Shown: one piece after another, positions 47,731 to 64,000 of the stretch
How the letters are laid out: every line of letters starts with the position of its first letter
Numbering within the stretch: the stretch's first letter is position 1
Origin: Burkholderiales bacterium
GTDB taxonomy: Bacteria > Pseudomonadota > Gammaproteobacteria > Burkholderiales > SG8-39
Reading direction: 5' to 3'
NCBI GenBank assembly: GCA_035454685.1
Contig: DATIGN010000127.1
Span: 56,269 to 120,268 of the forward strand
DNA length: 64,000 nt
The notes under the pieces: generated by a model
Told to the model about the DNA's origin: nothing
Databases searched by the model: none
What the model saw: only the letters and a program-made list of their open reading frames with translations
Made by a program: the position numbers and the translations under genes

Positions 47731-48288
47731 TCAATCCTCGGAATGATTGAAGTTATGCTCTGCTGGTCGCACCTCGTAGCCTTCCGCTCCGGGCGCCGGC
47801 GTCTTCGGGCGCGGCTCTACCAGCTGCTGGAACAGCATGTTCATGAACATGAACATCGGCTTCGTCTTGATCACGAGCGCACGCGCCGGCTTGTCGGGGC
47901 TCGCGTTGAAGTGCTGGTGCACGCAGTTGTTGTGCACGATCGCGACGTCGCCCGCCTGCCAGTCGTAGCGGATGCCGTCGTGAATTTCAAAGCCTTTTCC
48001 ATCCAATATATAAAAGGCTGCCTCGTTGACGTGCCCGTGCTTCTGCGACTTGCCGCCGGGCGCGTATTCCTCGAGGTGCAGGTGGAACATCTGGGTGACG
48101 CCGTCCTTGGGCTCGACGTAATGGCGGCTGTAGGTCTGCGGGCCGTCGACGAACTTGAGCTCCCTGCCCTTGCGCACGCGCGGCATCGCGCGCAGCCGCG
48201 CGAGCTCCTCTTTCAGGCTGTACTGCCCCTGTATCGCGCGGACGAAAATCCGGTCCTTCTTGCTGTGATAGTGCGACTCGGTGCTCAT
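47731..48288 (-). CDS. Cupin-domain protein (HQHFN family), paralog of 51839-52393
   Basis: QKHGHVNEAAFYILDGKG and NCVHQHFN. Start at the internal ATG (MSTESHY). Confidence 0.75.
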   Translation of the reverse strand: MSTESHYHSKKDRIFVRAIQGQYSLKEELARLRAMPRVRKGRELKFVDGPQTYSRHYVEPKDGVTQMFHLHLEEYAPGGKSQKHGHVNEAAFYILDGKGFEIHDGIRYDWQAGDVAIVHNNCVHQHFNASPDKPARALVIKTKPMFMFMNMLFQQLVEPRPKTPAPGAEGYEVRPAEHNFNHSED

Positions 48289-48313
48289 TCGCGCTTCAGT
48301 ATACATTTATCCG

Positions 48314-49483: not shown

Positions 49484-50767
49484 ATGCGCGCGGAACAGAA
49501 TGAATTCCTGACGCGCACCGGCCCGGGCACGCCGATGGGCGAGCTTTTCCGCCGCTACTGGCTGCCGGCGCTGCTCGCAGCCGAGCTTCCCGAGCCTGAC
49601 TGCCCGCCGGCGCGGGTACGGATCCTGTCAGAGAAGCTGATTGCGTTTCGCGACACGCAGGGCCGCCTCGGCCTCATCGACGAGTTCTGCGCGCACCGCG
49701 GCGTATCGCTCTGGTTCGGGCGCAACGAGGAAGGCGGCCTGCGCTGCTCCTACCACGGCTGGAAGTACGACGTGACCGGCCAGTGCCTCGAGATCCCTTC
49801 CGAGCCCGACAATCCGAAGCTGTGCCAGCGCATGAAGCTCAAGTCCTACCCGCTGGTCGAGCGGGGCGGCGTGCTCTGGACCTACATGGGCCCGCGCCAG
49901 CTGCAGCCGCCGCTGCCGGAGCACGAGTGGGCGATGGTTCCGCAAAGCCATCGCTTCGTCTCCAAGCGCTGGCAGGAATGCAACTACCTGCAGGCGATGG
50001 AAGGCGGGATCGACTCGAGCCATGTGTCCTTCCTCCACCGCGAGACCATCAAAGTTGACCCGATGTTCAAGGGCGCGGCGCAGAGCCACCAGTACAACCT
50101 TCAGGACCTCGCGCCGCACTTCGAGGTGGTGGAATCGGCCGGCGGCCTCTATATCGGCGCGCGGCGCAACGCTGGCGACGGGAAGCACTATTGGCGCATC
50201 ACGCAATGGGTGATGCCGAGCTTCACGCTGATCCCGCCGCGCGGCGACCACCCGATCGGCGGCCACTGCTGGGTGCCGATGGATGATGAGAATTGCTGGG
50301 CCTGGAGCACGAACCACCACGCGGCCCGCGCCTTGACTCAAGAGGAGCGCGAAGCGATGGAAGCCGGCAAAGGCATCCATGTTCCGGTCATCCCCGGCAC
50401 CTTTCGTCCGGTCGCCAACAAAGACAACGACTACCTGATGGACCGCAGGGCGCAAAAGGAACGCCGCACGTTCTCGGGAGTCGAGGGCTTCGCGATGCAG
50501 GATGCGTCGGTGCAGGAAAGCATGGGACCGATCCAAGATCGCACCAAAGAGAACCTCATGCCGACGGACCAGGGGATCATCATGGCGCGCCGCCGCCTCC
50601 TCGCCGCCGCCCAGGGACTGCAAGAAGGCGCGACGCCGCCCGGGACCGACCCGCGCCATCAACGCGTGCGCTCGGTGTCGATCATCCTTCCCCAGGGCGT
50701 CTCGTTCAGCGAGGCGGCAGAAGACGCACTCGTCCCGGAGCCGGGATCGGCGCACGCCACAGTCTAG
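49484..50767 (+). CDS. Rieske [2Fe-2S] non-haem-iron oxygenase, alpha/oxygenase component
   Basis: CAHRG...CSYHGW Rieske motif. Mononuclear iron motif NYLQAMEGGIDSSHVSFLH. Confidence 0.9.
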   Translation: MRAEQNEFLTRTGPGTPMGELFRRYWLPALLAAELPEPDCPPARVRILSEKLIAFRDTQGRLGLIDEFCAHRGVSLWFGRNEEGGLRCSYHGWKYDVTGQCLEIPSEPDNPKLCQRMKLKSYPLVERGGVLWTYMGPRQLQPPLPEHEWAMVPQSHRFVSKRWQECNYLQAMEGGIDSSHVSFLHRETIKVDPMFKGAAQSHQYNLQDLAPHFEVVESAGGLYIGARRNAGDGKHYWRITQWVMPSFTLIPPRGDHPIGGHCWVPMDDENCWAWSTNHHAARALTQEEREAMEAGKGIHVPVIPGTFRPVANKDNDYLMDRRAQKERRTFSGVEGFAMQDASVQESMGPIQDRTKENLMPTDQGIIMARRRLLAAAQGLQEGATPPGTDPRHQRVRSVSIILPQGVSFSEAAEDALVPEPGSAHATV

Positions 50768-50778
50768 GAGGAGGACCA

Positions 50779-51837
50779 ATGCTTGCTCGAACGATTGCCG
50801 TTGCTTTGCTGCTCGTTTCCACCGCCGCCACCGCCCAGCCGGCGCCAGGACCTCACCGCAGCCTCTACATGTACCAGGGCGCCGACCGCGACCAGCGCAT
50901 CATTGAGGGTGCGAAGAAGGAAAAGCAGATGGTCGTCTATACCTCGCTTAACACCAAGGACTCGGTGCCGATCTCGCAGGCGTTCGAGAAGAAGTACGGC
51001 GTCAAGGTCGAGCTCTGGCGCTCCTCCAGCGAGAAGGTGCTGCAGCGGGCGCTCACCGAGGCGCGCGCCGGTCGCCACGCGGTGGATGCTTTCGAGCTGA
51101 ACGGACCGGAGATGGAGGCGCTCTACCGCGAAGGGCTGCTGGAGGAGTTCTGGAGCCCGTACTTCAAGAATCTCCCGCCGGCGGCGTTCGCCAAGCACAA
51201 GCACTACGTCGCCGACCGCTTCAACTTCTTCACCATCGCCTACAACACGAAGCTGGTGAAACCGGAGGAGGTGCCGAACAGCTACGAAGACCTGCTGCAC
51301 CCGCGCTGGGTGGGCAAGATCGGCATCGAGGCGAGCGACGACGACTGGTTCGCTTCGATCGTAAAGCACATGGGCGAGCAGAAGGGACTTGCTTTCTTCC
51401 GCAAGCTTGCTGAAATGAAGCCGCAGGTGCGCACCGGGCATACGCTTCTCGCCGAACTCGTCGCCGCCGGCGAGATTCCGCTCGTTGCCACGATCTACAA
51501 CCACAACGCCGAGCGGCTGCTCGTCAACGGCGCGCCGATCAAGTGGAAGGCGCTCGACCCGACCTTTGGTCGGCCGAACGCGGTCGCGGTGACCAAGCGT
51601 GCGCCGCGCCCGTATGCGGCAATGCTTTTTGTCGACTTCATGCTCTCGCCAGAGGGCCAGGAGCTTCTCAAGCAGCGCAACCGCGTGCCGGCGAGCACCG
51701 CGGTCGAGACCAACCTCAACAAGTTCCCCTTCCATATGATCGACCCGGTGATCGTGCTGGATGAGCAGGCGAAGTGGGAAAAGATCTGGTCGGAGCTCTT
51801 CCTCAAAGGCCAGGCGATCAAGCGCGAGGCCGACTGA
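50779..51837 (+). CDS. Family-1 (Fe3+/polyamine-type) ABC substrate-binding protein, orphan copy
   Basis: ATG 50779 follows GGAGGAGGA. Signal peptide. Paralog of 60565-61587. Confidence 0.85.
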   Translation: MLARTIAVALLLVSTAATAQPAPGPHRSLYMYQGADRDQRIIEGAKKEKQMVVYTSLNTKDSVPISQAFEKKYGVKVELWRSSSEKVLQRALTEARAGRHAVDAFELNGPEMEALYREGLLEEFWSPYFKNLPPAAFAKHKHYVADRFNFFTIAYNTKLVKPEEVPNSYEDLLHPRWVGKIGIEASDDDWFASIVKHMGEQKGLAFFRKLAEMKPQVRTGHTLLAELVAAGEIPLVATIYNHNAERLLVNGAPIKWKALDPTFGRPNAVAVTKRAPRPYAAMLFVDFMLSPEGQELLKQRNRVPASTAVETNLNKFPFHMIDPVIVLDEQAKWEKIWSELFLKGQAIKREAD

Positions 51838-51838
51838 A

Positions 51839-52393
51839 ATGGGCAAGGAGTCGCACTATTCGAGCAAGAAGGACCGGGTCTTCGTCCGGGCGATTCAGGG
51901 CCAGTACAGCCTAAAGGACGAGCTCAAGCGCCTGCGCTCCCTGCCCCGTGTCATCCGGGGCAAGGAGATGAAGTTCCAGGACGGCCCGCAGTCCTTTTCC
52001 AAGCACTTCGTCGAGCCGGTCGACGGGATGACGCAGACGCTGCACATCCACCTAGAGGAGTACGCCCCCGGCGGCCGCACGCAGAAGCACGGCCACGTCA
52101 ACGAGGCGGCGTTCTACATCCTGGACGGCAAGGGCTACGAGATCCACGACGGCGTGCGCTACGACTGGCAGGCCGGCGACGTCGCGATCGTGCACAACAA
52201 CTGCGTGCACCAGCACTTCAACGCCGACCCGGACAAGCCTGCGCGCGCGCTCGTGCTGAAATCGAAGCCCATGTTCATGTTCATGAACATGCTGTTCCAG
52301 CAGTCGGTGATCCCGCGGCCCACCGAGCCGGCGACGCCGGCCGGCGCGGGCTTCGAGCCGCGGCACGACGAGACGCACTACAACCACGAATGA
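51839..52393 (+). CDS. Cupin-domain protein (HQHFN family)
   Basis: Close paralog of 47731-48288, collinear from ESHYxSKKDR to MFMFMNMLFQQ. Confidence 0.75.
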   Translation: MGKESHYSSKKDRVFVRAIQGQYSLKDELKRLRSLPRVIRGKEMKFQDGPQSFSKHFVEPVDGMTQTLHIHLEEYAPGGRTQKHGHVNEAAFYILDGKGYEIHDGVRYDWQAGDVAIVHNNCVHQHFNADPDKPARALVLKSKPMFMFMNMLFQQSVIPRPTEPATPAGAGFEPRHDETHYNHE

Positions 52394-53505
52394 AGTCCGC
52401 CGTCGTCTCGCAGGATTTCGCCGCCAAGTTCGCGACCGAAAGGGAGACTCCGTACACGCGCTGGGTGCGCGAGGAAGGGCTCGACATCATCGGCTCGTTC
52501 TACGTCCAGAACCTCCACACGGTCGAGCTCAAACCCTGGCCGCGGCGCGGTGGCAAGGGGGTGTTCCTCAATCACGACGCCTCGCGCACCTCCAACGACT
52601 GCTACGTGTGCGAGATTCCGCCCGGCAAGAGCCTCGCGCCGCAGCGCCAGCTCTTCGAGGAGATGATCTACGTGCTCGACGGGCGCGGCTCGACCGCGGT
52701 GTGGAACAACGCTGGCAACCGCGCGAGCTTCGAGTGGAAGGCAGGAGCGATCTTCGCGATTCCGCTCAACTGCTGGCATCAGCACTTCAACGGCTCGGGC
52801 AAGGACCCGGTGCGCTACGTCGCCGTGACTAACGCGCCGGTGATCATCAACGCGTTCGGCGACCTCGACTTCGTCTTCAACTGCGATCACGACTTCAAGG
52901 AGCGCTTCGCAGGCGAGCCCGAGTACTTCGCGAACAAGGGCGAGCAGAAAGGGCTCCTGCTCGACACCAACTTCGTCGCCGACGCGATCAACCTGCCGCT
53001 TTTCGCCGCCAAGGAGCGAGGCGCAGGCGGCGGCCACACACGCTTCAGCATGGCGAAGGGCTCGATGAACAGCCACATCTCCCAGTTTCCCGTCGGCACC
53101 TACAAGAAGGCACACGCCCACGGGCCCGGCGCGCACGTCATCGTGCTTTCCGGCGAAGGCTTCAGCCTGATGTGGCCCGAGGGCGAGGCGCCGAAGCGCT
53201 ACGACTGGCGCGAAGGCACGATGATCGTTCCGCCGAACCTGTGGTTCCACCAGCACTTCAACACCGGCACCACGCCGGCGCGCTACCTCGCCTTCAAGGC
53301 TGAGGGCGTAGCCGTGCGCAACGCGCAGGGCGTGCCCAAGGCCTGGATCAGCCGTCGCCTCGGTGGCGACCAGATCGACTACGCCGACGAGCGGCCCGAG
53401 ATCCGGCAGTGGTTCGCCGAGGCGCTCGCGAAGCATGGCGTCAAGCCGAACATGGACAAGGCCTACGCCACGGAGCGCGGCGAGCTGCCAGAAAAAGCCG
53501 CTTAG
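52390..53505 (+). CDS. Bicupin protein (HQHFN family; gentisate-dioxygenase-like architecture)
   Basis: Two cupin modules ending NCWHQHFN and NLWFHQHFN. Confidence 0.75.
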   Translation: MKSAVVSQDFAAKFATERETPYTRWVREEGLDIIGSFYVQNLHTVELKPWPRRGGKGVFLNHDASRTSNDCYVCEIPPGKSLAPQRQLFEEMIYVLDGRGSTAVWNNAGNRASFEWKAGAIFAIPLNCWHQHFNGSGKDPVRYVAVTNAPVIINAFGDLDFVFNCDHDFKERFAGEPEYFANKGEQKGLLLDTNFVADAINLPLFAAKERGAGGGHTRFSMAKGSMNSHISQFPVGTYKKAHAHGPGAHVIVLSGEGFSLMWPEGEAPKRYDWREGTMIVPPNLWFHQHFNTGTTPARYLAFKAEGVAVRNAQGVPKAWISRRLGGDQIDYADERPEIRQWFAEALAKHGVKPNMDKAYATERGELPEKAA

Positions 53506-54293
53506 TACTTGTCGAGCCGGAAGCGGCGCGGCTTGAGCGCGCGGCAGATCTCCCGCGTGAGCCCTGCCTGCGGCAGCGCGAGACCGCACTCCGCGGCCAT
53601 CTGCGCGACGATCGCCATGTCATCCTCGGCCCACGCCATGGTCTGCGTACCCCACTTCTCGAGCGCCGAGTTCGCCGCGCTCGACATGCCGAGCGCTCGG
53701 CGCAGCATCTGGACATCTACGCCATAGCGCTGCGCCAGAGCGAGGCCTTCGTGGTCCGCTACCAGGCAGGCCCACATGATGAGGTTGTTCACCGCCTTCG
53801 CGACCTGCGCCGAGCCTACAGCGCCAGTGTGGACTACCTCGGATGAATAGGCCTTCAGCACCGGAGTGACGCGCTCGACCACCTCCTTCCGTCCGCCCAC
53901 GAACGAAAGCAGCGTCCCCTGGTCCGCCGCCTCCCCTCCGCGGCAAACCGTCGAGTCGATCAGCGAAATCTCCCGGTTGGCTTTGGCCAGCTCTTGCACG
54001 GTTTTCGGCAGGATTGTGCTCAGGATAGCGACGATCTTCCCCTTCAAGGGCTCGCGGTTTTTCTCGAGCAGCTGGCGCACCTCGTGATCGAAGCCGACGC
54101 AGACAAGAACAATGTCGCTCTCTCTTGCCAAGACAGCGGCATCGCTCCGCCACGACGCAGACTTCCTTTCCACCTCGCCCTTCTTTCCTGGGTCAACGTC
54201 GGTCGCAAGAGTCCGAAACCCTTTTCTTGCCAAGTGCCCGATGATCGGCAGCCCCATGCGCCCCGCTCCGACGACGCCGACGGTGTCGCTCAT
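53502..54293 (-). CDS. NAD(P)-dependent 3-hydroxyisobutyrate-dehydrogenase-family oxidoreductase
   Basis: Start at the internal ATG (MSDTVGVVGAGRMGLPIIGHL). AKAVNN motif. Confidence 0.85.
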   Translation of the reverse strand: MSDTVGVVGAGRMGLPIIGHLARKGFRTLATDVDPGKKGEVERKSASWRSDAAVLARESDIVLVCVGFDHEVRQLLEKNREPLKGKIVAILSTILPKTVQELAKANREISLIDSTVCRGGEAADQGTLLSFVGGRKEVVERVTPVLKAYSSEVVHTGAVGSAQVAKAVNNLIMWACLVADHEGLALAQRYGVDVQMLRRALGMSSAANSALEKWGTQTMAWAEDDMAIVAQMAAECGLALPQAGLTREICRALKPRRFRLDKY

Positions 54294-56002
54294 CGTTTCT
54301 GGGTAATCGTGTCGAGGAGCGCCGGCTGGCCGGCCTTGACGCGCGCGATGGCGCGCCTGAGCGCGGCGGCGACATCGCCGGGACGGCCGATAGGACCCTC
54401 GGCGTACCAGCCCATGGACTTCGCCAGCGCGGCGAAATCCGGGGCCGGGTCGTCCATGTCCATGCCGATGTGCGCGCGCTCCACCGGCGTGCCGCGCAGC
54501 TTCGCCATGCGGATCTGGTGCTCCCAGTCGTTGTAATAGGCGCGGTTGTTGTACATCACCACGAGCAGCGGAATGCGGTGCTTTGCCGCCACCCACAGCG
54601 CGCCTGCGTCGAACATGAGGTCGCCGTCGGGCTGAAGGTCGACGACCAGCCGCTTTGCATCGCGGTGCGCGAGCGCGACGCCAAGCGAAATTCCGATCTG
54701 CGTCGCCGTGCCGAGAGACTTTCCGGCATGGCGATACGGCTTGTCGAAGTCCCAGATCTGCCGCGCCCGGTCGTCCAGGGTCCCCGCCGCGAGCACCCAG
54801 TCTTCGGACTTGATCGCGTTCCACACTTCCGTCGCGAGCCGCGGCAAGGTAATCGGGCTCGCGTCCCAGTCCTCCTTCGCTTCCGCCTGCCACTTCGCAT
54901 GCGCTTTTTGGCGCAGCTCGGCCACGGTTCTTAGCCAGGAATCGCGCTTAACGGGTCTTGATGCAAGAAGCTTCGTTAGCGTAGGAATCGCAAGCGTGGT
55001 ATCCGCGAGAATGCGCAGGTCGGCGTGCGCAAGGCGCTGGTAGTCCATCGCCCAGCTCGAAATCTCGAGGTCGCCGAAGCCGATGTCGATCCATTTGCAG
55101 TCCGCCGGAACGAGCGAGGTCACCTCGCGCGTCGTGCTCACGAGCTCGGTCGTGGGGCGCTCCCAGTCCCGCGTATCGAGGCAAAGGATGAGGTCCGCGT
55201 CGCGAAAGACATGCTTCACCATGCTCAGGTTGAGCGGATGCCGGCTCGGGAAGTTGAGGCGGCTGTTGACGTCGTAGACCGGTGCGCCGAGCGTCTCGGC
55301 GAGCTCGACCAGGGCATGGAAGCCAGCGGGCTCGCGGCCGACATACTCGGCGATGATCGCCGGGCGTTTCGCGGCAGCAAGCATCTCGGCCGCTCTTTCC
55401 AGCGCTGCGGGGTCCGGTGCGAGCGGGCTCGGCACTTTGGCGGCGGACGATTTTGGAAGCGCGACCTCATGCTCGAGCGGCTGCTCCTGGAGCCAGGCGT
55501 CGTAGCACATGTAGATCGGGCCGCGCGGCTCGGTCATCATCACCGCATAGGCGCGCGCGAAAGATTCGGGCACGCCGTCGATCACGGTCGGCTGATAGTC
55601 CCACTTGGTGTATGCGCGCACCGCCTCGCCCTGCACCAGCGCGCTGTGGATCCAGTCGATGCGCGGCCGGCGTTTGGTCTCGTCCATAGGCCCCGTGGCG
55701 CCGATGATGAACACCGGCGCGCGGTCGGCGTAGGCGTAGTAGATCGCCATGTTGGCGTGCAGGAGGCCGACCAGGTTATGCAGGATGGCGACCATCGGTC
55801 TTCCGCTCGCCTTGGCGTAGCCGTGAGCGATCTGCACCGCGGTCTCCTCATGCTGGCAGAGCATCATGGCCGGCCGGTTGCCGCCGTAATTCACCATCGA
55901 GTCGTGCAGCCCGCGGTAGGAGGCGCCCGGGTTGAGTGCCGCATAGGGAAAATCGTAGGCATGCAGCATGTCCACGATCACGTCGGAAGCCCAGCGCTTC
56001 AT
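54290..56002 (-). CDS. Thiamine-diphosphate-dependent enzyme (acetolactate-synthase/benzoylformate-decarboxylase superfamily)
   Basis: Start at the internal ATG (MKRWASDVIVDML). HEETAVQIAHGYA Pyr-domain Glu. GDLMFDAGALWVAAKHRIPLLVVMYNN ThDP-binding motif. Confidence 0.85.
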   Translation of the reverse strand: MKRWASDVIVDMLHAYDFPYAALNPGASYRGLHDSMVNYGGNRPAMMLCQHEETAVQIAHGYAKASGRPMVAILHNLVGLLHANMAIYYAYADRAPVFIIGATGPMDETKRRPRIDWIHSALVQGEAVRAYTKWDYQPTVIDGVPESFARAYAVMMTEPRGPIYMCYDAWLQEQPLEHEVALPKSSAAKVPSPLAPDPAALERAAEMLAAAKRPAIIAEYVGREPAGFHALVELAETLGAPVYDVNSRLNFPSRHPLNLSMVKHVFRDADLILCLDTRDWERPTTELVSTTREVTSLVPADCKWIDIGFGDLEISSWAMDYQRLAHADLRILADTTLAIPTLTKLLASRPVKRDSWLRTVAELRQKAHAKWQAEAKEDWDASPITLPRLATEVWNAIKSEDWVLAAGTLDDRARQIWDFDKPYRHAGKSLGTATQIGISLGVALAHRDAKRLVVDLQPDGDLMFDAGALWVAAKHRIPLLVVMYNNRAYYNDWEHQIRMAKLRGTPVERAHIGMDMDDPAPDFAALAKSMGWYAEGPIGRPGDVAAALRRAIARVKAGQPALLDTITQKR

Positions 56003-57117
56003 TCGTAAGCCCACTCCCCGGACGCCTTGAGCGCCACGCACTTCTCCGGATCGATGCGCACGTAGAGGCTCGCGCCGACCGGCGTGCGCAGCGACGGATG
56101 CGCGCGCGACTGCACCGAGCGGCGGCCGATCATTACCTGGAAGTCAACGACCTCGCCGAGGAATACCTTCTGGTCCACGGTGGCCTGGTAGACGTTCTCG
56201 CCGTCGCGGCGGCTCTCGGAAAGCTCCACGTCTTCCGGCCGGATCGAGAGCACCACCTCCTCGCCGCTCTTCAGCGAATCGACACCGCGCGCCTTCAGTT
56301 CGCCGATCTCGGAGCGGATGCGGTAGAAGCCGCCCGCCGGGTCGGCTGCGCTCACGTCACCCTTGATGAAGTTGGTGGTGCCGACGAAGTCTGCGACGAA
56401 CTGGTTGCGCGGGCGCTCGTACACCTCGCGCGGCGAGCCGAGCTGCTCGATGCGCCCCGCGTTCATCACCGCGATCGAGTGCGACAGCGCGAGCGCCTCG
56501 CTCTGGTCGTGCGTGACGTAGACGGTGGTGATGCCGAGCTCGCGCTGCAGCCGCTTGAGCTCGAAGCGCATGCGCTCGCGCAGCTTGGCGTCGAGGTTGG
56601 AAAGCGGCTCGTCGAGGAGCAGGAGCGACGGCTCCATGACAAGGGCCCTCGCGAGCGCCAGGCGCTGCTGCTGCCCGCCGGAGAGCTTGGTCGCCTCGCG
56701 ATCGGCCATTTCCTCCAGCGCCACCACCTTGAGCACGCGGTGCACGCGCTCGTGGATCTGGATTTTCGGCATGCTTTTCCTGGAAACCTGCAACGGAAAG
56801 GCCGCGTTGTCGAACACCGTCATGTGGGGCCAGATGGCATAGGACTGGAACACCATGCCGAGTCCGCGGCGGTTCGGCGGCACGAACACCCGCTGTGTCG
56901 AGGAATAGATGACGCGGCCCCCGACGACGATTTCCCCGGAACGCGGCTTTTCCAGCCCGGCGATCGAGCGCAGCGTAGTGGTCTTGCCGCATCCGCTCGG
57001 GCCGAGCAGCGTGAAGAGCTTGCCCTGCGGCACGTCGAAGCTCACGTCCTGCGCGGCGCGGATTGTCTGGCCGTGCTCGCCGGCGTACTCCGTGCACAGA
57101 GCCGAAACGCTGAGCAA
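55999..57117 (-). CDS. ABC importer ATP-binding protein (PotA/FbpC-like, with a C-terminal regulatory domain)
   Basis: TTG start at 57117, just after the permease stop. GPSGCGKTT, LSGGQQQRLALARAL, LLLLDEPLSNLD. Confidence 0.88.
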   Translation of the reverse strand: MLSVSALCTEYAGEHGQTIRAAQDVSFDVPQGKLFTLLGPSGCGKTTTLRSIAGLEKPRSGEIVVGGRVIYSSTQRVFVPPNRRGLGMVFQSYAIWPHMTVFDNAAFPLQVSRKSMPKIQIHERVHRVLKVVALEEMADREATKLSGGQQQRLALARALVMEPSLLLLDEPLSNLDAKLRERMRFELKRLQRELGITTVYVTHDQSEALALSHSIAVMNAGRIEQLGSPREVYERPRNQFVADFVGTTNFIKGDVSAADPAGGFYRIRSEIGELKARGVDSLKSGEEVVLSIRPEDVELSESRRDGENVYQATVDQKVFLGEVVDFQVMIGRRSVQSRAHPSLRTPVGASLYVRIDPEKCVALKASGEWAYE

Positions 57118-57119
57118 GC

Positions 57120-58862
57120 CTAGTGCTCCTTGATCCCGAACTTGCTGCCGACCCACTGCGCGATCATCACCAGGATGAACAGCGCGATGATGAACATCAC
57201 CCCGAGCGCCGAGAGCTCGACGTACTGGCCGTTCTCCCACAGCTCCCAGATGAGGATCGAGAGCACCTCGTTGCCCGGGCTATAGAGAAGGATCGAGCTC
57301 GAGAGCTCGCGGATCGACACGATCATGATGTAGATCCAGCCGGCGACCAGCCCCGGTTTGAGCAGCGGCAGAATGATGCGCCTGAAGCTCGTCGTCCAGG
57401 AAGCGCCGCTCATGGCCGCCGATTCCTCGAGCTCCTTGTGGATCTGCAGCATCGAGGTCGTGTTGTAGCGCAGCCCGTAGGGCAGGAAGCGCGTCACGTA
57501 GGCGATGACCAGGATCCAGATCGTGCCGTAGACGCCGATCGGCACGTAGAGGTAGAGGATCATGATCGACAGGCCAAGCACGATGCCCGGAAACACCATC
57601 GGCAGCGAGGCGATGTTGTCGAGCAGCCAGCGGCCGGGCAGCCGGGTCTTGACCACGATCCAGCAGATCACCGAGGTCACGAGCATGATGAGCGTGGCTG
57701 AGCCGACAGCGAGCACCAGGCTGTTCCACACCGAGCGCCACAGTCCCGGGTGATCGAGCACGGTGCGGTAGGGCTCGAACGTCATGCGCTGGATCGCTTC
57801 GATGGAGGGCACGGAGTAGAACTTCTGGAACGACGACCACAGCAGGACCGCGAACGGCAGCAGCACGATGAGCAGGAAGTAGACCAGGAACACCGCGACC
57901 GCGAGGTAACGCCACGGGCCGAGGTCGATCTGGCGCGGCCGGAAGCCCTTGCCGGTCATGGTCGCGTACTTGTTGCCCCGGCTCGACAGCACCGACTGAA
58001 AGTACACGCCGATAGTGGTGAGCAGCAGCAGCGTGACCGCGTAGGCGGAAGCGAGGCCGATCTGGCTTGGATAGCGGTGCACCGCCTGGTAGATCGCCGA
58101 GGTGAAGACCTGAATGCCGACCGGAAGCCCGAGCAGCGCCGGCACCTCGAACGATTCGATCGCCCGCACGAAAAGAATGAGCAACGTGGCGAAGATCGCG
58201 GGCCATACCAATGGCAATGTCACCCGGGTGAGCACCTGCCACACGCTCGCGCCGCTCATCACGGCCGACTCTTCGAGCGCCGGATCCATCGCGCGGAACG
58301 CCGCGGTCATCAGCAGGAAAGCCATCGGCGAGTAGTGCAGCGCGTCGACCCAGATCATTCCCCAGAGCGAGTAGACGTTGATGAACACCGCTTCGGTGTC
58401 GAAGACCTTCTGCAGCGCCAGGTTGATGAGGCCGATCTTCGGGCTGCCCAGCAGGATCCACGAGACGGTGAAGAGAATTCCCGGGATCACGAGCGGAATG
58501 AGCGAGAGCGCGAAAAAGAGCGCCTTGAACGGGGTATTGGTGCGCTCGTTCATCCACGCGAGCAGCGTCCCGAGCACGAAAGCGAGCACGGCGGTGCCCG
58601 AGGCAAACTTGACCGAGTTCCAGAACAGCACCCAGGTTTCCGCCGAGCCGTAGGCCTCGCGGTAGTTGCCGAGCGTGAACTCGGCCGCCTTGGCCGCGGT
58701 GTGGGGCGTGAAGAAGCTCTGCCAGAGCAGGAAGCCGAGCGGCACGATGCCGAGGTAAACCGTGACGGCGACACAGACGCCGATGATCAGCCATTTCGGG
58801 TCGAAGGCGAGCCGCGGCGCAGCGGCCGCCGGCGCCCTAGCGAGGGTGGTGGTGCTCGGCAT
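57120..58862 (-). CDS. Fused two-module ABC importer permease (FbpB/ThiP-type)
   Basis: 580 aa, two MalFG-type halves. Confidence 0.85.
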   Translation of the reverse strand: MPSTTTLARAPAAAAPRLAFDPKWLIIGVCVAVTVYLGIVPLGFLLWQSFFTPHTAAKAAEFTLGNYREAYGSAETWVLFWNSVKFASGTAVLAFVLGTLLAWMNERTNTPFKALFFALSLIPLVIPGILFTVSWILLGSPKIGLINLALQKVFDTEAVFINVYSLWGMIWVDALHYSPMAFLLMTAAFRAMDPALEESAVMSGASVWQVLTRVTLPLVWPAIFATLLILFVRAIESFEVPALLGLPVGIQVFTSAIYQAVHRYPSQIGLASAYAVTLLLLTTIGVYFQSVLSSRGNKYATMTGKGFRPRQIDLGPWRYLAVAVFLVYFLLIVLLPFAVLLWSSFQKFYSVPSIEAIQRMTFEPYRTVLDHPGLWRSVWNSLVLAVGSATLIMLVTSVICWIVVKTRLPGRWLLDNIASLPMVFPGIVLGLSIMILYLYVPIGVYGTIWILVIAYVTRFLPYGLRYNTTSMLQIHKELEESAAMSGASWTTSFRRIILPLLKPGLVAGWIYIMIVSIRELSSSILLYSPGNEVLSILIWELWENGQYVELSALGVMFIIALFILVMIAQWVGSKFGIKEH

Positions 58863-60417
58863 GCCGATGCGGCACGCGGGGATCCTGGCTGAAGACCAGG
58901 GACTTGATCGTGACCGGCACGGTATTCGAAGGCACCCGGATGCGGCCGAGATCGATGTAGTCGAAGTCGCGCAGCGCGACGCCGTCGATCACCAGCACTT
59001 CGGAGCGCAGTCTCCAGTCTTCCTTGAGGATCGCGCCGAGCGTATGCGCGACGTCGCCTTCGAGGACGAGGTAGATCGGCTTCTCCCGCTCAATTGTGGC
59101 GCGCAGAGCAAGGGTGATTGCGCGGGCCAACGTCGACAGGCGCTCGAACGAAGGTTCGCCGCGCCACTTGAACGCGAGTGCGACCTCGGTTTCGCCTTCG
59201 GCTATATCGAAAGCTTCGAAATGCGCGCGGATGGCCGCAGCCACGGTCGCGGCGTCGATCGGCCCTTCGAGCCGTACGGGCGGCTGCAGCGCCGGCAGGT
59301 TCTTGCGCGGCAGCAGCGCCCCCGGCTCGGACACATATACCGTGTTGCCGGAAAGCTGAACGCTGTACTCGGAGGCGCCGAACGCCGTCGCGCGGATGCA
59401 CTCTCCGGCGGGAAGCAGTTTCCCCGGCAGGCGGTCGAGGCGCTGCGCGAGCGCCCGGCCCAGTCGCCTGCCCAGGTCGCCGAAATCGCGCTCCTCGCGT
59501 CCGTAGACGTATTCACCGACCCCGCCGGAAAACATGACGCCGTGGACGGCGCGCAGCTCCCTGAGCGGCTCGGTGAGATAGCCGCGCCGCTCGCCCAGTA
59601 TCGCCATGCAGAGCGATTCAGCCATCCATTCGCACAAGAAATCCAGCTCAGCCGGTGCGACCCGGCCGCCGAGCTGTAAATCGAGCCCTGCCTGCCGTGC
59701 CAGCGCGCGCCCTTGGGGATCAAGGCGTGTGATGCGACCCTCGGCGTCCGCGACGAGCAGCCGGCCGCCGATGTGGATCGCGGCCGTCTCGAGGACGCGG
59801 CCGTGCTCGATCAGGGCGAGCTTGGTGGTGCCGCCGCCGATATCGATGTTGAGCACGCGCAGGCCGCGGTCGTGCGATACCTGCGCCGCGCCCGAGCCGT
59901 ACGCCGCAAGCATCGCTTCCATGTGATGCCCGGCGGTCGCGCAAACAAACTCTCCGCCCATCTCGGCGAGCAGCTCGCCGATCGCCTGGGCATTCTCGCG
60001 GCGCAACGCTTCGCCGGTCAGGATCACCGAGCCGGTATCGACCTGGTCGGGATGCAGGCCGGCGGCCGCGTACGCCTCGTCGATGACGCGGCCAACGGCC
60101 TCTTCGTCGATGCGCGTCTCGCTCGCATAAGGCGTGAGCGCTACCGGCGACTGGTAGAGCGTCTCGCGGTTGACGACGAAATAGCGGCTCGACAGGTCCT
60201 CCCCCATGCGTCGCATATGCAGCCGCGAGAAGATCACCTGGGTACCAGCCGAGCCGATGTCGATGCCCACGCTTGTCAGCGAGACGTTGTCTTGCAGCCA
60301 GAGCGCGTCGTGCTCGGACGAAGCATCGTGCTCGTGGTCGGCGTCGTGATCGTGATCATGATCGTGATCCACCCCGTGAACGTGGTCGGCGAGCGTATGG
60401 CGTTTCTCACTCGCCAT
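58837..60417 (-). CDS. EutA-family (ASKHA-fold reactivase-like) ATPase with His/Asp-rich termini
   Basis: SVGIDIGSAGTQ, VILTGEALRRENA, LNIDIGGGTTKLAL and MFSGGVGEY resemble EutA. N-terminal HVHGVDHDHDHDHDADHEHD and C-terminal HRHAEHHH. Confidence 0.72.
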   Translation of the reverse strand: MASEKRHTLADHVHGVDHDHDHDHDADHEHDASSEHDALWLQDNVSLTSVGIDIGSAGTQVIFSRLHMRRMGEDLSSRYFVVNRETLYQSPVALTPYASETRIDEEAVGRVIDEAYAAAGLHPDQVDTGSVILTGEALRRENAQAIGELLAEMGGEFVCATAGHHMEAMLAAYGSGAAQVSHDRGLRVLNIDIGGGTTKLALIEHGRVLETAAIHIGGRLLVADAEGRITRLDPQGRALARQAGLDLQLGGRVAPAELDFLCEWMAESLCMAILGERRGYLTEPLRELRAVHGVMFSGGVGEYVYGREERDFGDLGRRLGRALAQRLDRLPGKLLPAGECIRATAFGASEYSVQLSGNTVYVSEPGALLPRKNLPALQPPVRLEGPIDAATVAAAIRAHFEAFDIAEGETEVALAFKWRGEPSFERLSTLARAITLALRATIEREKPIYLVLEGDVAHTLGAILKEDWRLRSEVLVIDGVALRDFDYIDLGRIRVPSNTVPVTIKSLVFSQDPRVPHRHAEHHHPR

Positions 60418-60568
60418 TGGCGCGTCGGTGGTACTCGAGGCGGTGCACGGTGCTCTTTACGAAGCGCAGCTGGCTGGCGAGGGTAGTAATGCCGAGTTCG
60501 TCCTCCTCGCCCGAAAACGAAGTTAGCAACCGGATCGAGTTCGCGACCGAGGACAGCGCCTTCGTCAC
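60407..60568 (-). CDS. Candidate 53-codon stand-alone IclR-type HTH mini-protein (or gene remnant)
   Basis: The GTG overlaps the SBP stop as GTGA, and the TGA overlaps the eutA-like start (ATGGCGAGTGA). Translation: VTKALSSVANSIRLLTSFSGEEDELGITTLASQLRFVKSTVHRLEYHRRANGE. It is hidden inside spurious track ORF 60407-61072. Confidence 0.45.
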   Translation of the reverse strand: MTKALSSVANSIRLLTSFSGEEDELGITTLASQLRFVKSTVHRLEYHRRANGE

Positions 60569-61587
60569 TTCCGAATGAATAGGCCCTCCCAGAGCCTGTT
60601 CCACTTTTCCTGCTCGTCGAGCACCGTGACCGGATCCACCATGGTGTACGGGAAGCGGTTGAGGTCGGTCCTGACTTTGGTGCTCACCGGCACGCGCCCC
60701 ATAGAGTTGAGCAGCTCCTGACCTTCCGGTGAGAGCACGAAATCGACGAAGAGCAGCGCGGCGTGAGGATGCGGCGCGTTGCGCGCCACCGCTATCCCCT
60801 GCGGCCGGCCGACCACCGGCTCGACTGGCAGCCAGTCGATCGGCGCGCCGCGGCGCTTGAGCGATTCGGCGTTGCTGTTGTAGACGGTAAGGCCGACCGG
60901 GATCTCGCCCGCGGCGATGAGTTCGGCAAGCAGCACATGGCCCTTGCGCACGTCGGGCTTCATCTCCGCGAGGCTGCGGAAGTACGCCATGCCCGCCGCC
61001 TCCCCCCAGGTCTTCACCAGCGTCGCCATCCATTCCGCGTCGGTGGCTTCGATGCCGATGCGCCCTCTCCACTTCGGATCCGTGAATCCAGTATAGCTTT
61101 TCGGGATCTCGTCACGCTTTACCTTTGCGGTGTTGTAGGCCACCACGAAGAAATTCACCCGATCCGGAATCCACTGGCGGTGCGACGGAATCGCGCTTGC
61201 CGGCAGGTCGGCGAGGTGGGGCGAGTGGAAATCGGCGAAGAGTTTCTCGCGCGCCATGATCTCCATCTCCGGGCCATTGGTCTCGACCACGTCGACCGCA
61301 AAGCGCCGCGCGCGCGCCTCGGTCACGGCGCGCTGCACGACCTTCTCGCTGATCGTGCGGAAAATCTCGACCTTCACGCCGGTTTTCCTCTCGAATGCCT
61401 GGCCCAGCGGCCCGGATTCGGTCGGAGCGAGCGAGGTGTAGAGGACGACGCTCCCCTCTTTGCGCGCGTTCTCTAGCAGGCGGCGGTCGCGATCGGCGCC
61501 GCTATAGCGGTAGACGGCTTCACTGGCGAAGCTCGCGCTTCCGATGCACAGCACGAGCCCCGCAATCAATTTCAATGGGCGATTCAT
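60565..61587 (-). CDS. Family-1 ABC substrate-binding protein
   Basis: Signal peptide MNRPLKLIAGLVLCIGSASFA. Paralog of 50779-51837. First gene of the importer operon. Confidence 0.85.
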   Translation of the reverse strand: MNRPLKLIAGLVLCIGSASFASEAVYRYSGADRDRRLLENARKEGSVVLYTSLAPTESGPLGQAFERKTGVKVEIFRTISEKVVQRAVTEARARRFAVDVVETNGPEMEIMAREKLFADFHSPHLADLPASAIPSHRQWIPDRVNFFVVAYNTAKVKRDEIPKSYTGFTDPKWRGRIGIEATDAEWMATLVKTWGEAAGMAYFRSLAEMKPDVRKGHVLLAELIAAGEIPVGLTVYNSNAESLKRRGAPIDWLPVEPVVGRPQGIAVARNAPHPHAALLFVDFVLSPEGQELLNSMGRVPVSTKVRTDLNRFPYTMVDPVTVLDEQEKWNRLWEGLFIRK

Positions 61588-61634
61588 TGACCCTCGTACT
61601 ATTCTATGGTGAAGTGAGCCGAGGAGAACGCGGT

Positions 61635-61644
61635 TCTATATAGA
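61635..61644. promoter_or_regulatory. 10-bp perfect palindrome TCTATATAGA in a divergent intergenic region (candidate operator/-10)
   Basis: Read directly. A second TTCTAT lies 32 bp upstream (61602-61607). Confidence 0.3.
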
Positions 61645-61672
61645 GAAACCTCGGAAACGCCGGTCCAGCCTC

Positions 61673-62731
61673 GTGAGCACCAAGACCACCACGGCCGTCA
61701 CGCATTACCACATCCAGAAGAAACGGCGGGCCGAGTTCATCGAGCAGTGGCGCAAGAACCGGCGCACCGTGATCCGCGGCGAAGATGTCGCGCTGCAGCG
61801 CACTGCGCGAGGTTTGCGGAGCGGCGTCTACATGGGGTGGGACGGCGACTCGCCGACGCGCTGCCTCGACGCTCTGGTACACGAGATCGACCCGGGCACG
61901 GTGGCGACGATCCACCGTCATTCATGGGACGCGCAGCTTTTTATCGTCGAGGGCTCCGGCTGGAGCGAGATCGACGGCCGCCGCTTCGAATGGAAGCCTT
62001 GGGACGCGATCCACATCCCGGCGTGGAGCTGGCACCGACACGGCAACGACGGCTCGAGGCGCGCCCGCTTCATGAGCTATTCGTCCGAGCCGATGCTCTG
62101 GACGCTGGGTCTCTGCGTGCTCGAAGACCGAGGGTACGAGGATGTGCGCGACCTCCCCCCGCCGCCGGCTTCAAGCCCGGGTATTGACGGTGACGATCCA
62201 TATTCCCGCCGAAGACGACGGATTTTTCAGGAAACCAAGAAACGACGTGGCGGCCGCATCCATACGCCCTACGACGAGCAGGATCTGCTCGCCACGCCGC
62301 GCGGCACGCGCACCAAGTTCCTGGTCGACCGCGCCATCGGCAGCGAATCCTCGGGCATCACCCAGGTCATGATCCAGTTCGCGCCAGGCAAGACGCAGTC
62401 GCTGCACCGCCATCCCGGCGAAGCGTGGCTCTACGTTGTCGAAGGTTACGGCCACAGCTTCATGGGCACTGCTCCGGACCGCGGGCAGCACTACCGCTGG
62501 AAAAAAGGCGATCTCATCGTGGTCGACCATTTCCTGTGGCACCAGCACTTCAACGACGATCCCAAGGGGGAGGCTCGACTCGTGCGCGTCCACATGTTCG
62601 ACTCGATCCTGGAAACCATGCGCGCGCTCACCGACCCGTTGGTGCTTTTCGAGGAGGCGGAGGATACGCTCCTCAGCATGCAGGAAATCTCGCAGATCGA
62701 GTGGCCGGACGATCGGCGGCCGGAAGGTTGA
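61673..62731 (+). CDS. Bicupin protein
   Basis: IHRHSWDAQLFIVEGSG...WSWHRHGN and HRHPGEAWLYVVEGYG...FLWHQHFN. GTG start. Confidence 0.75.
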   Translation: MSTKTTTAVTHYHIQKKRRAEFIEQWRKNRRTVIRGEDVALQRTARGLRSGVYMGWDGDSPTRCLDALVHEIDPGTVATIHRHSWDAQLFIVEGSGWSEIDGRRFEWKPWDAIHIPAWSWHRHGNDGSRRARFMSYSSEPMLWTLGLCVLEDRGYEDVRDLPPPPASSPGIDGDDPYSRRRRRIFQETKKRRGGRIHTPYDEQDLLATPRGTRTKFLVDRAIGSESSGITQVMIQFAPGKTQSLHRHPGEAWLYVVEGYGHSFMGTAPDRGQHYRWKKGDLIVVDHFLWHQHFNDDPKGEARLVRVHMFDSILETMRALTDPLVLFEEAEDTLLSMQEISQIEWPDDRRPEG

Positions 62732-62744
62732 AGCGGCTCCGCCG

Positions 62745-63716
62745 ATGGCCGCGCCCGCCCCTGCTCTCCCGCCTGGCATCGTCTCGCTGCACACCTTACC
62801 GGCGGAACACCACGACAAGGACTGGGACGCGATCATCGTGCCAGCCGGGGTCAAGGAGCGGCTGCTCGCGCAGGCGCTGCTCACGCTCAAGCACGGGCGC
62901 AAGCTCGCCACCCTTGCGGGGCTGCCGCACGGGCTCATTGTGCTCGCCGGCCCCCCGGGCACCGGTAAGACGACGCTCGCACGCGGCCTCGCGCAGGTAT
63001 CGGCGCTGGCGCTGGCGCGCGAAGGGGCGACCACGCTCTTGGAAATCAACCCGCACGCCTTCCCGAGCGACATGCTGGGCGAGAGCCAGCGCAACATCAT
63101 GCGGCTTCTCACCGACACGATCCCGGAGATTGCGGCGCGGCGCCCGCATACCGTGGTTCTGATCGACGAGGTCGAGAGCTTCGCGGTGCGGCGCAGCACC
63201 GCCTCATTCGAGACCAACCCGGTCGACGTGCACCGCGCCACCGATGCGGTGATGCTCGGCATCGACGAGGTCGCGCGCAAGCTTCCCGCAGTGCTCTTCG
63301 TGACTACCACGAACTTCATCGACGCCATAGACGAGGCGTTCCTGTCGCGCGCCGACCTGGTGATGCATTTCGCGCTGCCCGATCCTGGGACGATCGCCCG
63401 CATCCTGCATGACTCGCTCGCGGAGCTCGCCGTACAATGGCCCGCGCTGAAACCGCTCCTGCAATCCGAGGATGAAATCAATGAGGTCGCGAGGCTCTGC
63501 GGAGGCTGGAGCGGGCGTCAGGTGCGCAAGCTCGTCCTCGCGGCGCTCGCCCAGCGCCTGGAGGTGGCGAAGGATCCGGCGCGCCTTACCTTCGAAGACC
63601 TGCGCGAGGCGGCGCGCAAGCGCGGCGGCGTCGAGTGGGTCGGGGCCGCCGGCCCGTCGTCCAAGGAGCTCTTTCCCGACGTCCCGAAGCATTTGATGCA
63701 CGACCATCATCACTAG
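62745..63716 (+). CDS. AAA+ ATPase, TRIP13/Pch2-like core, with a His-rich C-terminus
   Basis: ATG 62745. Walker A GPPGTGKTT, Walker B VVLIDEVESF, sensor region TTTNFIDAIDEAFLSRADLVMHFALPD. C-terminal KHLMHDHHH. Confidence 0.85.
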   Translation: MAAPAPALPPGIVSLHTLPAEHHDKDWDAIIVPAGVKERLLAQALLTLKHGRKLATLAGLPHGLIVLAGPPGTGKTTLARGLAQVSALALAREGATTLLEINPHAFPSDMLGESQRNIMRLLTDTIPEIAARRPHTVVLIDEVESFAVRRSTASFETNPVDVHRATDAVMLGIDEVARKLPAVLFVTTTNFIDAIDEAFLSRADLVMHFALPDPGTIARILHDSLAELAVQWPALKPLLQSEDEINEVARLCGGWSGRQVRKLVLAALAQRLEVAKDPARLTFEDLREAARKRGGVEWVGAAGPSSKELFPDVPKHLMHDHHH

Positions 63717-63726
63717 GAGGAGGCTC

Positions 63727-64000
63727 ATGAGGCTGGTTTTGGGATTGATTGCCGCGCTCGCCGCGGCGCCGGCGCCCGCGCAGTACTACTCCGGCAAGAC
63801 AGTCACCATCGTCGTCGGCTACAAGACCGGCGGCGGCTACGACGCCACCGCGCGCGTGCTGGCGCGCCATCTGCCCAAGCACATCCCCGGCAAGCCGAGC
63901 GTGATCGTGCAGAACATGCCCGGCGCGAACAGCATCATCGCTGCGAACCACGTCTATGCCGTCACCAAGCCGGATGGCCTGACGATCGGCACGTTCAACC
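63727..64000 (+). CDS. Periplasmic solute-binding protein, Bug/TctC-like; 5' part only, runs off the window
   Basis: ATG follows GGAGGAGG. Signal peptide MRLVLGLIAALAAAPAPA. GGGYDATARVLARHL and NMPGAN...KPDGLTIG resemble Bug-family blocks. Confidence 0.55.
   Translation, partial: MRLVLGLIAALAAAPAPAQYYSGKTVTIVVGYKTGGGYDATARVLARHLPKHIPGKPSVIVQNMPGANSIIAANHVYAVTKPDGLTIGTFN

Follow-up and report, generated by a model that had tools for sequence, protein, structure and literature searches.

A TRIP13/Pch2-family AAA+ ATPase conserved beside a bicupin, its candidate client, in place of HORMA partners

This work describes a two-gene unit at one end of a 64-kb stretch of DNA from a Burkholderiales bacterium (contig DATIGN010000127.1; the whole stretch of 64,000 nucleotides that was analyzed is referred to here as the window). 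The first gene encodes a 352-amino-acid protein with two cupin domains (the bicupin), and the second encodes a 323-amino-acid AAA+ ATPase that begins 13 nucleotides (nt) past the bicupin stop codon (Table 1). A preliminary description of the window, drawn from the letters alone, had likened the ATPase to the TRIP13/Pch2 clade on account of several motifs and had pointed to its His-rich end. The reading frame, its spacing, and every quoted motif were all seen in the list of open reading frames (ORFs) and in the translation, namely, W27-D28, VKERLL, GLIVLAGPPGTGKTT, VVLIDEVESF, and TTTNFIDAIDEAFLSRADLV, with HLMHDHHH at the C terminus. Judging from their homologs and composition, both ORFs are genuine genes and not chance ORFs: thousands of homologs were found for both, orthologs in another phylum are 57 to 71% identical, and the G+C content at third codon positions (GC3) is 0.82 in a genome of 66% G+C.

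Sequence searches and the predicted fold confirmed the ATPase as a member of the bacterial TRIP13/Pch2 (Cap6) family. The PADLOC TRIP13 model PDLC00915 matched the entire protein (E = 5.9e-96, 319 bits), with the next family, IetA, at 53 bits and the other PADLOC model, PDLC00914 (one-HORMA type), at 62 bits. When solved structures were searched with phmmer, human TRIP13 and Caenorhabditis elegans PCH-2 were retrieved at 1e-26 and VAT/Cdc48 at 1e-19, and a profile of 33 bacterial relatives gave the same ranking. For the AlphaFold2 (AF2) model, which has a predicted local distance difference test score (pLDDT) of 80, the top nine Foldseek matches were all TRIP13/PCH-2 (including 5vq9 and 4xgu), and the tenth was the Trip13 of Escherichia coli MS115-1 (6p8v). 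CbbX and FtsH, the clades that would have contradicted the first assignment, reached only 16.7 and 21 bits and were rejected. The Pfam AAA family matched at E = 1.7e-19, and the protein contains a single classic-clade AAA+ module; the Pfam TRIP13 lid domain remained below its threshold (19.8 bits versus 27).

Alignments A1 and A2 show a motor with a complete set of catalytic motifs, in which Walker A, Walker B (residues 141 and 142), N190, R202, and the sensor-2 Arg R258 are invariant or nearly so. The region 3' of Walker B comprises the pore-loop-2 region (R149-H163), sensor-1 N190, and the Arg finger R202; residues 149 to 154 have low pLDDT, as expected of a flexible pore loop. Eukaryotic TRIP13/PCH-2, an N-terminal-tail unfoldase, is ∼27% identical to the ATPase but has an additional N-terminal domain of ∼100 amino acids, the adapter p31comet, and HORMA-only clients (Ye et al., bioRxiv 10.1101/694695; established knowledge). 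The E. coli MS115-1 enzyme is a full-length fold match (template modeling [TM] score, 0.64 to 0.69) and a structural precedent for the threading of a substrate tail that bears Ser or Thr as residues 3, 5, and 7; it differs in its ∼21% identity, its diverged pore loops, its double Arg finger, and its lack of a sensor-2 Arg.

The bicupin resembles gentisate and salicylate 1,2-dioxygenases. Pfam Cupin_2 was found in two stretches of the protein (E = 9e-26), the closest solved structures by sequence were gentisate/salicylate 1,2-dioxygenases (3bu7 at 1.6e-18 and also 2d40), and salicylate and gentisate dioxygenases were the best fold matches of the AF2 model (pLDDT, 82). The structure of MncA (2vqa) was also among the matches by both sequence and fold. 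The protein has two cupin barrels with the three-His motif HRH...WHxH, the established signature of the gentisate-dioxygenase type. Residues R82, H83, S84, W85, D86, W120, and H121 are invariant across alignments A3 and A4, and six His residues (H83 and H121 of barrel 1 and H245, H247, H290, and H292 of barrel 2) are unchanged in 33 orthologs; the Actinoallomurus bicupin has Asn in place of H81. By these motifs, the bicupin is a gentisate-dioxygenase-like metalloenzyme with one predicted metal site per barrel. Mean column identity in A3 and A4 is 77 to 78% across phyla, and the protein is, by all appearances, subject to strong purifying selection. The fold and the HRH...WHxH metal motif are common to the bicupin and the characterized dioxygenases (3bu7, 2d40, and 2phd), but identity over the fold alignment is just 17 to 23%, and scores fall far under the cutoffs of the curated NCBIfam equivalogs (67 bits versus 442 for TIGR02272 and 69 versus 650 for MabB). 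Relative to these enzymes, the bicupin adds a Thr-rich tail followed by a helix that opens with HYH, a linker of basic character (DPYARRxRR...RRxGR), and, three positions past the second His, an acidic residue.

Relatives of the pair were sampled from a scan of species-representative genomes, contigs coding for representatives of 42 to 59% identity, contigs carrying bicupin orthologs, annotated plasmids, and a metagenome scan with the bicupin. The genome scan was keyed on a generic Walker A peptide and returned mostly unrelated AAA+ genes, with only loci L007 to L013 being usable, and the metagenome scan recovered close relatives only (80 to 92% identity), so that it counts pairing but adds no diversity. 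A survey of ortholog neighborhoods had been proposed at the outset as a check on the link to the cupin, and the link proved to be conserved: the bicupin lies directly upstream of the ATPase in 13/13 sampled clade loci (ATPase identity, 42 to 100%), and among metagenome loci with at least 300 nt past the bicupin, the ATPase is directly downstream in 71/72 and present as a split match in the last. The clade loci comprise the window, a Burkholderiales metagenome-assembled genome (MAG) (L007), Actinoallomurus (L008), an Actinomycetota MAG (L009), Mycolicibacterium wolinskyi and Mycolicibacterium goodii (L010, L087/88), Streptomyces (L099), Amycolatopsis (L100), and 5 deep metagenomic branches (L089, L091, L092, L097, and L098). 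The contigs of L092 and L098 hold just the C-terminal end of the upstream gene, which is recognizable as a bicupin C terminus. Spacing between the two genes ranges from −10 to +75 nt across the clade, with overlaps of 4 or 10 nt in four lineages. Because the genes flanking the pair in L089, L091, L097, and L098 are unrelated to those of the window, the conserved unit is the pair itself. The two proteins have also diverged in parallel across phyla. Gene order and identity across these loci show a strict and ancient pairing, with frequent start/stop overlap.

Relatives of the ATPase outside this clade occupy a different setting. All eight sampled relatives with recognizable neighbors (39 to 50% identity), namely, P0135, P0141, those of Herpetosiphon and a Rhizobiales genome, and those on plasmids of Polaromonas, Rhodococcus, Pseudosulfitobacter, and Methylobacterium, are found in canonical operons of the type III cyclic oligonucleotide-based antiphage signaling system (CBASS). 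In these operons the ATPase gene comes first and is followed by Cap8, HORMA2, CD-NTase, and effector genes. Verified operons with 44 to 50% identical ATPases are of the Cap8-bacHORMA_2-SMODS type. The ATPase of the window is 66 to 71% identical to the cupin-linked ATPases of actinobacteria versus 45 to 46% to the CBASS Trip13 proteins of Polaromonas (a member of its own order) and Rhodococcus, which come from the orders that also carry the pair, a pattern that fits a distinct orthologous function for the cupin-linked ATPases. In distance-based (neighbor-joining) trees, the cupin-linked clade was monophyletic with a bootstrap value of 92/100; when rooted on human and C. elegans TRIP13, it was supported at 81/100 and fell inside the bacterial TRIP13-like radiation, beside the two-HORMA CBASS ATPases. 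These two-HORMA type III enzymes (with Cap8, HORMA2, and CD-NTase, e.g., the operon of Pseudomonas aeruginosa ATCC 27853) are of the same AAA+ family, are ∼300 amino acids long with no large N-terminal domain, are 44 to 50% identical to the ATPase, and share all of its motifs together with an NPxDVHRATDA segment. In the cupin-linked clade, by contrast, the partner is a bicupin of ∼350 amino acids, the pore loop reads PS[DE][LM]LGESQRN rather than the [AT]S[SA]xLG[KR][ST]Q of CBASS members, there are extra His clusters, the ATPases form a clade of their own, and the genes are chromosomal, among metabolic rather than mobile genes. As a separate observation, a plasmid of Haloarcula halophila (L183, 3905-4912) encodes an archaeal TRIP13-like ATPase that is 31% identical to the ATPase of the window and 41% identical to P0225. 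All genes listed after it are hypothetical, none being annotated as a CBASS cyclase, and it may represent another context for the family.

The preliminary description had also reported that HORMA and CD-NTase partners are missing, and this held for the window and for the surroundings of clade relatives. Searches with tblastn (E ≤ 1) of 259 kb of cupin-type loci, the whole 64-kb window included, gave no match to the HORMA2, Cap8, or CD-NTase proteins of the CBASS operons, which readily retrieved their counterparts in a positive-control locus; the bacHORMA and Cap8 Pfam families were likewise absent among the neighbors of clade members. No cupin-type ATPase was detected on 72,556 plasmids (0/72,556), and the base composition of the pair is the same as that of its flanks. 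The pair is not mobile. By descent, then, these comparisons make the ATPase a TRIP13/Pch2 member that lacks both the HORMA client that is the hallmark of the family and every feature by which CBASS is recognized. We nevertheless considered whether the pair could be a degenerate or novel antiphage module that stems from type III CBASS and uses the bicupin as its sensor or effector, given that its closest relatives are CBASS Cap6 proteins and that the PADLOC TRIP13 match is strong. This we regard as extremely unlikely because the bicupin is strongly conserved (at the column identity given above), the neighbors are metabolic (a chromosomal setting of catabolic and transport genes), plasmids are without the pair, and no CD-NTase, HORMA, or effector gene accompanies the pair in the loci searched; the bicupin itself also has no PADLOC match. 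Since the PADLOC TRIP13 model scores a non-CBASS ATPase at ∼1e-96, automated defense annotation could mislabel such genes as CBASS.

We consider that the bicupin is probably the direct client of the ATPase. The competing explanation is that the ATPase acts on some other client (the cupin paralogs, the transporters, or a protein encoded elsewhere) and that adjacency reflects coregulation only. The wider cluster does contain several cupins and transport systems, and the link between bicupin and ATPase is one of gene arrangement; however, the bicupin is the only companion of the ATPase in L089, L091, L097, and L098, and both the 4- or 10-nt overlaps in four lineages and the parallel divergence of the two proteins argue for a direct relationship. 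A different client therefore seems very unlikely.

The N terminus of the bicupin suggests how such a client might be recognized. The tail has a fixed length and the consensus M-[AST]-[TS]-[RK]-T-T-T-x-V-[TS]-H-Y-H. Of 104 orthologs, 100 have Thr or Ser at position 3, 102 have Thr5, 103 have Thr7, and 94 have H-Y-H starting at position 11. A T-x-T-x-T pattern within the first ten residues was seen in all deep branches. In the AF2 model, residues 1 to 10 form a low-pLDDT coil, and a helix begins at residue 11. The HORMA2 proteins of the nearest two-HORMA CBASS operons also open with alternating-Thr tails (e.g., LSTHTYTLTQTRT and MSTSTSTTTYTRTHT), so that the presumed clients of both systems have a short, free, Thr-rich N-terminal tail. 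In E. coli, Trip13 threads the disordered N terminus of its HORMA protein, with pore loop 2 reading Ser/Thr at positions 3, 5, and 7; in this one-HORMA enzyme, the Ser/Thr ladder is read by His173 of that loop, and deletion of HORMA residues 1 to 12 abolishes Pch2 remodeling (Ye et al., bioRxiv 10.1101/694695). On the strength of this precedent and of the Thr-rich tails of the sister HORMA2 proteins, the bicupin tail looks like a substrate handle for the TRIP13 family. Threading of the tail by the ATPase, an idea taken over by analogy, strikes us as an evenly balanced proposition. H163 of the ATPase (within NPVDVHR) was tried as the counterpart of His173 of E. coli Pch2; counting residues from the Walker A and Walker B motifs and from the Arg finger gives conflicting offsets (10 to 17), and equivalence is therefore not claimed.

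A further property of the cupin-linked ATPases is their content of His. In the window, H16, H22, H23, and D24 are invariant in alignment A2, and the motif HH[DE] is present in 120/120 Burkholderiales-type and 107/120 actinobacterial homologs. The N-terminal segment holds 2 to 4 His residues in 13/14 clade members versus 0 to 2 in verified CBASS relatives, and ATPases P0128, P0131, and P0132 have His-rich N-terminal extensions. At the other end, the C-terminal His tail is found in 120/120 Burkholderiales-type homologs and, as in the metagenome set, varies in sequence but is always His-rich; pLDDT in the window ATPase is low from residue ∼295 and below 50 at residues 321 to 323. Metallochaperones of the UreE/HypB/SlyD type have flexible His-rich terminal extensions, to which the tail of the Burkholderiales-type ATPases, likewise predicted to be disordered, may be compared. 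As far as these alignments indicate, His enrichment is particular to the cupin-linked clade relative to its CBASS relatives. A metal-related purpose for the action of the ATPase on the bicupin is a possibility that we would place somewhat below an even chance.

In cupins such as MncA, metal sites are reportedly set at folding (Tottey et al., 2008), after which they become buried and kinetically trapped, and a trapped metal provides a rationale for an unfoldase. The preliminary description had suggested that the ATPase may be a remodeler, activase, or metallochaperone for the cupin enzyme, and the sequence evidence gathered here supports such a role circumstantially. Putting these elements together, we propose, as the favored explanation, that the bicupin and the ATPase form a dedicated client-remodeler pair, in which a TRIP13-like hexameric unfoldase would have exchanged its usual HORMA client for the bicupin. 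The free Thr-rich tail (residues 1 to 10) would enter the central pore of the hexamer, as the HORMA tail does in CBASS Trip13, and ATP hydrolysis would extract the N-terminal helix (residues 11 to 29, beginning with HYH). Removal of this helix would briefly loosen the cupin barrel or oligomer, allowing a buried, kinetically trapped metal to be inserted, exchanged, or rereduced, with activation or repair of the bicupin as the outcome. The His clusters of the ATPase (H16, H22, and H23 near the pore entrance and the His-rich N- or C-terminal extensions of several subclades) would hold or pass the metal ion. For this scheme as a whole, in which the hexamer pulls the tail, partly unfolds the bicupin, and loads, exchanges, or repairs its metal center, we see the balance as nearly level, tipping slightly toward doubt.

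Several observations weigh against the proposed scheme. To our knowledge, the gentisate dioxygenases characterized to date require no such helper. The C-terminal His tail, which the preliminary description had treated as a mark of the protein, stands as such for the ATPase of the window and its Burkholderiales-type homologs but was found in 0/120 actinobacterial orthologs; it is thus an accessory feature that the core mechanism cannot require. In L097, the deepest branch, Thr also alternates but in the other register (shifted by one) relative to HWH. The tail-threading analogy is drawn from the one-HORMA enzyme of E. coli, and pore loop 2 of the cupin-linked clade (RRSTASFETN) shows no obvious His. 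As a rival explanation, the evidence from the tail and from pairing would also apply to a role for the ATPase as a negative regulator, one that disassembles or inactivates the bicupin oligomer to control flux or to halt a harmful or wasteful oxygenase reaction and is unrelated to metal loading. Disassembly and inactivation of HORMA-partner complexes is the sole activity that has been established experimentally for the family (Ye et al., bioRxiv 10.1101/694695). Such an off-switch would leave the His clusters and His-rich extensions of the clade unexplained, and the start/stop overlap suggests roughly coordinated synthesis of enzyme and ATPase, an arrangement not expected of a protein that turns the enzyme off. 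Nor does any co-conserved sensor or adapter accompany the pair. We judge the off-switch unlikely.

A second cupin-plus-ATPase combination nearby bears on another alternative. The EutA-like ATPase of the surrounding cluster (Table 1) has His-rich termini (HVHGVDHDHDHDHDADHEHD ... PHRHAEHHHPR). EutA is the reactivase of ethanolamine ammonia-lyase, and neither ethanolamine ammonia-lyase genes nor B12 genes were found near the paralog in the window. In Mycolicibacterium (L087, 18427-20903) and Streptomyces (L099, 563-3272), the EutA paralog directly follows or overlaps a gentisate-dioxygenase-like bicupin paralog of 375 to 383 amino acids, and by this gene order the cluster would contain two cupin-plus-ATPase pairs. 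Such an arrangement suggests a shared theme of reactivation and is compatible with repair in the manner of a Rubisco activase, in which the ATPase would expel a tight dead-end ligand or reset a suicide-inactivated bicupin without any delivery of metal; AAA+ activases (CbbX, Rca, and CbbQO) are established. This reading contains every conjectural step of the proposed metal-center scheme, which it overlaps heavily because an enzyme whose metal is oxidized or lost is already inactivated, and metal handling explains the His enrichment better. Repair without metal delivery is accordingly, in our estimation, distinctly unlikely. The general arrangement, an ATPase gene beside that of the metalloenzyme or inhibition-prone enzyme that its product remodels, is shared in concept with the activases and maturases CbbX/CbbQO, NorQ/NorD, and CoxD, as known from established work; the CbbX-type and MoxR activases, however, belong to AAA+ clades other than that of the ATPase, and no VWA partner accompanies the bicupin pair.

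Returning to the metal-center scheme, its broader form would be that clients of the TRIP13/Pch2 family include a second class, distinct from HORMA proteins, and that one whole clade is an ATP-driven maturase or repair factor for cupin metal centers, recognizing a Thr-rich N-terminal tail like that of HORMA proteins; we advance this tentatively, with rather more doubt than confidence. The clade to which it would apply is widespread in soil Actinomycetota and Burkholderiales. Full-text literature searches that combined cupins with TRIP13/Pch2, with AAA+ ATPases, or with EutA returned no description of the pairing, and public annotations use the names "AAA family ATPase," "pachytene checkpoint protein 2," and "cupin domain-containing protein." What is described here is a new and conserved nonimmune partnership of a motor family that is already known; the association is solid and the mechanism inferred. 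Published work casts TRIP13/Pch2 proteins as HORMA specialists (in eukaryotic checkpoints, meiosis, and CBASS immunity), and a well-supported sister clade tied to a metalloenzyme would widen their range of clients. If the scheme is true, ordinary metabolism either took over the tail-threading logic of checkpoints and CBASS or was its place of origin, and there are cupin enzymes that acquire the right metal only through active unfolding. The pair would provide a simple two-protein bacterial system for substrate-tail selection by TRIP13 motors and, for metalloprotein biology, a concrete account of how a cupin that has already folded has its buried metal sites loaded or repaired. The idea is directly testable through orthologs in the tractable Mycobacterium smegmatis MKD8, M. 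goodii, Streptomyces, and Amycolatopsis.

Table 1. Coordinates of the bicupin-ATPase pair, its sequence features, and its neighbors in the window
Feature	Position	Strand	Remarks
Bicupin gene, 352 aa	61673..62731	+	GTG start; gentisate/salicylate 1,2-dioxygenase-like; proposed client of the ATPase
Bicupin N-terminal tail, residues 1-13, VSTKTTTAVTHYH	61673..61711	+	Thr-rich leader, then HYH opening helix 11-29; proposed pore handle
N-terminal cupin metal motif, H81-R-H83 ... W-H121-R-H	61913..62035	+	Alignments A3 and A4
C-terminal cupin metal motif, H245-R-H247-P-G-E250 ... W-H290-Q-H292	62405..62548	+	No residue of the motif varies in A3 or A4
AAA+ ATPase gene, 323 aa	62745..63716	+	TRIP13/Pch2 (Cap6) family by sequence, cupin-linked clade; begins 13 nt past bicupin stop
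N-terminal His cluster of ATPase, H16 ... H22-H23-D24	62790..62813	+	Just ahead of W27-D28, before the AAA+ core
Walker A, GPPGTGKT (K75)	62949..62972	+	Invariant in alignment A1
Walker B, VVLIDE (D141, E142)	63153..63170	+	Translation and alignments
C-terminal His-rich tail of ATPase, HLMHDHHH	63690..63713	+	Predicted disordered
Divergent promoter region between solute-binding protein and bicupin genes	61588..61672	.	Conserved TATTCTATGGT box; palindromes GAACRCGGTTCC and TTCCG(N5)CGGAA, which overlap; candidate operator
tctC start	63727..64000	+	10 nt past ATPase stop; preceded by GGAGGAGG
Bicupin paralog	52390-53505	+	Pfam/NCBIfam
NAD_binding_2 dehydrogenase	53502-54293	-	Pfam/NCBIfam
Thiamine diphosphate (ThDP) enzyme	54290-56002	-	Pfam/NCBIfam
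ABC ATPase	55999-57117	-	Pfam/NCBIfam
Fused ABC permease	57120-58862	-	Pfam/NCBIfam
His-rich EutA-like ATPase	58837-60417	-	NCBIfam EutA, 336 bits, under the cutoff of 598
PhnS/Fe3+-type solute-binding protein	60565-61587	-	Pfam/NCBIfam

The neighbor families encoded at positions 52390 to 61587 recur beside the pair in Mycolicibacterium, Streptomyces, and Amycolatopsis; because they are absent around L089, L091, L097, and L098, we regard them as accessory to the pair and not as part of its core. The cluster also includes two small cupin paralogs of ∼190 to 210 amino acids (47731-48306 on the minus strand and 51761-52393 on the plus strand), which start with MSTESHYHSKKDR and ..ESHYSSKKDR and thereby echo the helix start of the bicupin, THYHIQKKRR, without its longer Thr-rich leader. 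In all, at least four related cupin genes and a Rieske oxygenase gene (49484-50767) are present. When 20 cluster proteins were searched against NCBIfam, the sole match above the cutoff was to a LigK/PcmE-type aldolase, in M. goodii only, where this 4-carboxy-4-hydroxy-2-oxoadipate aldolase is encoded at positions 4983 to 5681 of L087. Further products of the mycobacterial cluster are a Zn-dehydrogenase, a protein of the Amidohydro_2 family, a hydrolase of the isochorismatase family, and a ferredoxin together with a ferredoxin reductase. Together, these genes, which are not adjacent to the pair in the window, give hints of catabolism of a carboxylated aromatic compound. Inositol, phosphonate, siderophore, and protocatechuate/gallate pathways were considered for the cluster, and none fits every gene.

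Upstream of the pair, the TATTCTATGGT box and the palindromes of the divergent promoter region are retained in an alignment of 11 distinct metagenome variants, and they may serve as an operator for a regulator of the cluster; in L089, genes for GntR-type regulators adjoin the pair. Downstream, longer contigs with an identical ATPase show that tctA and tctB come after tctC, which, by its position, is probably cotranscribed with the pair in the lineage of the window only. This identical ATPase (P0001) has been deposited under both Gemmatimonadales and Burkholderiales MAGs; its close relatives and the abundance of TctC genes favor Burkholderiales, and one of the two bins is probably contaminated.

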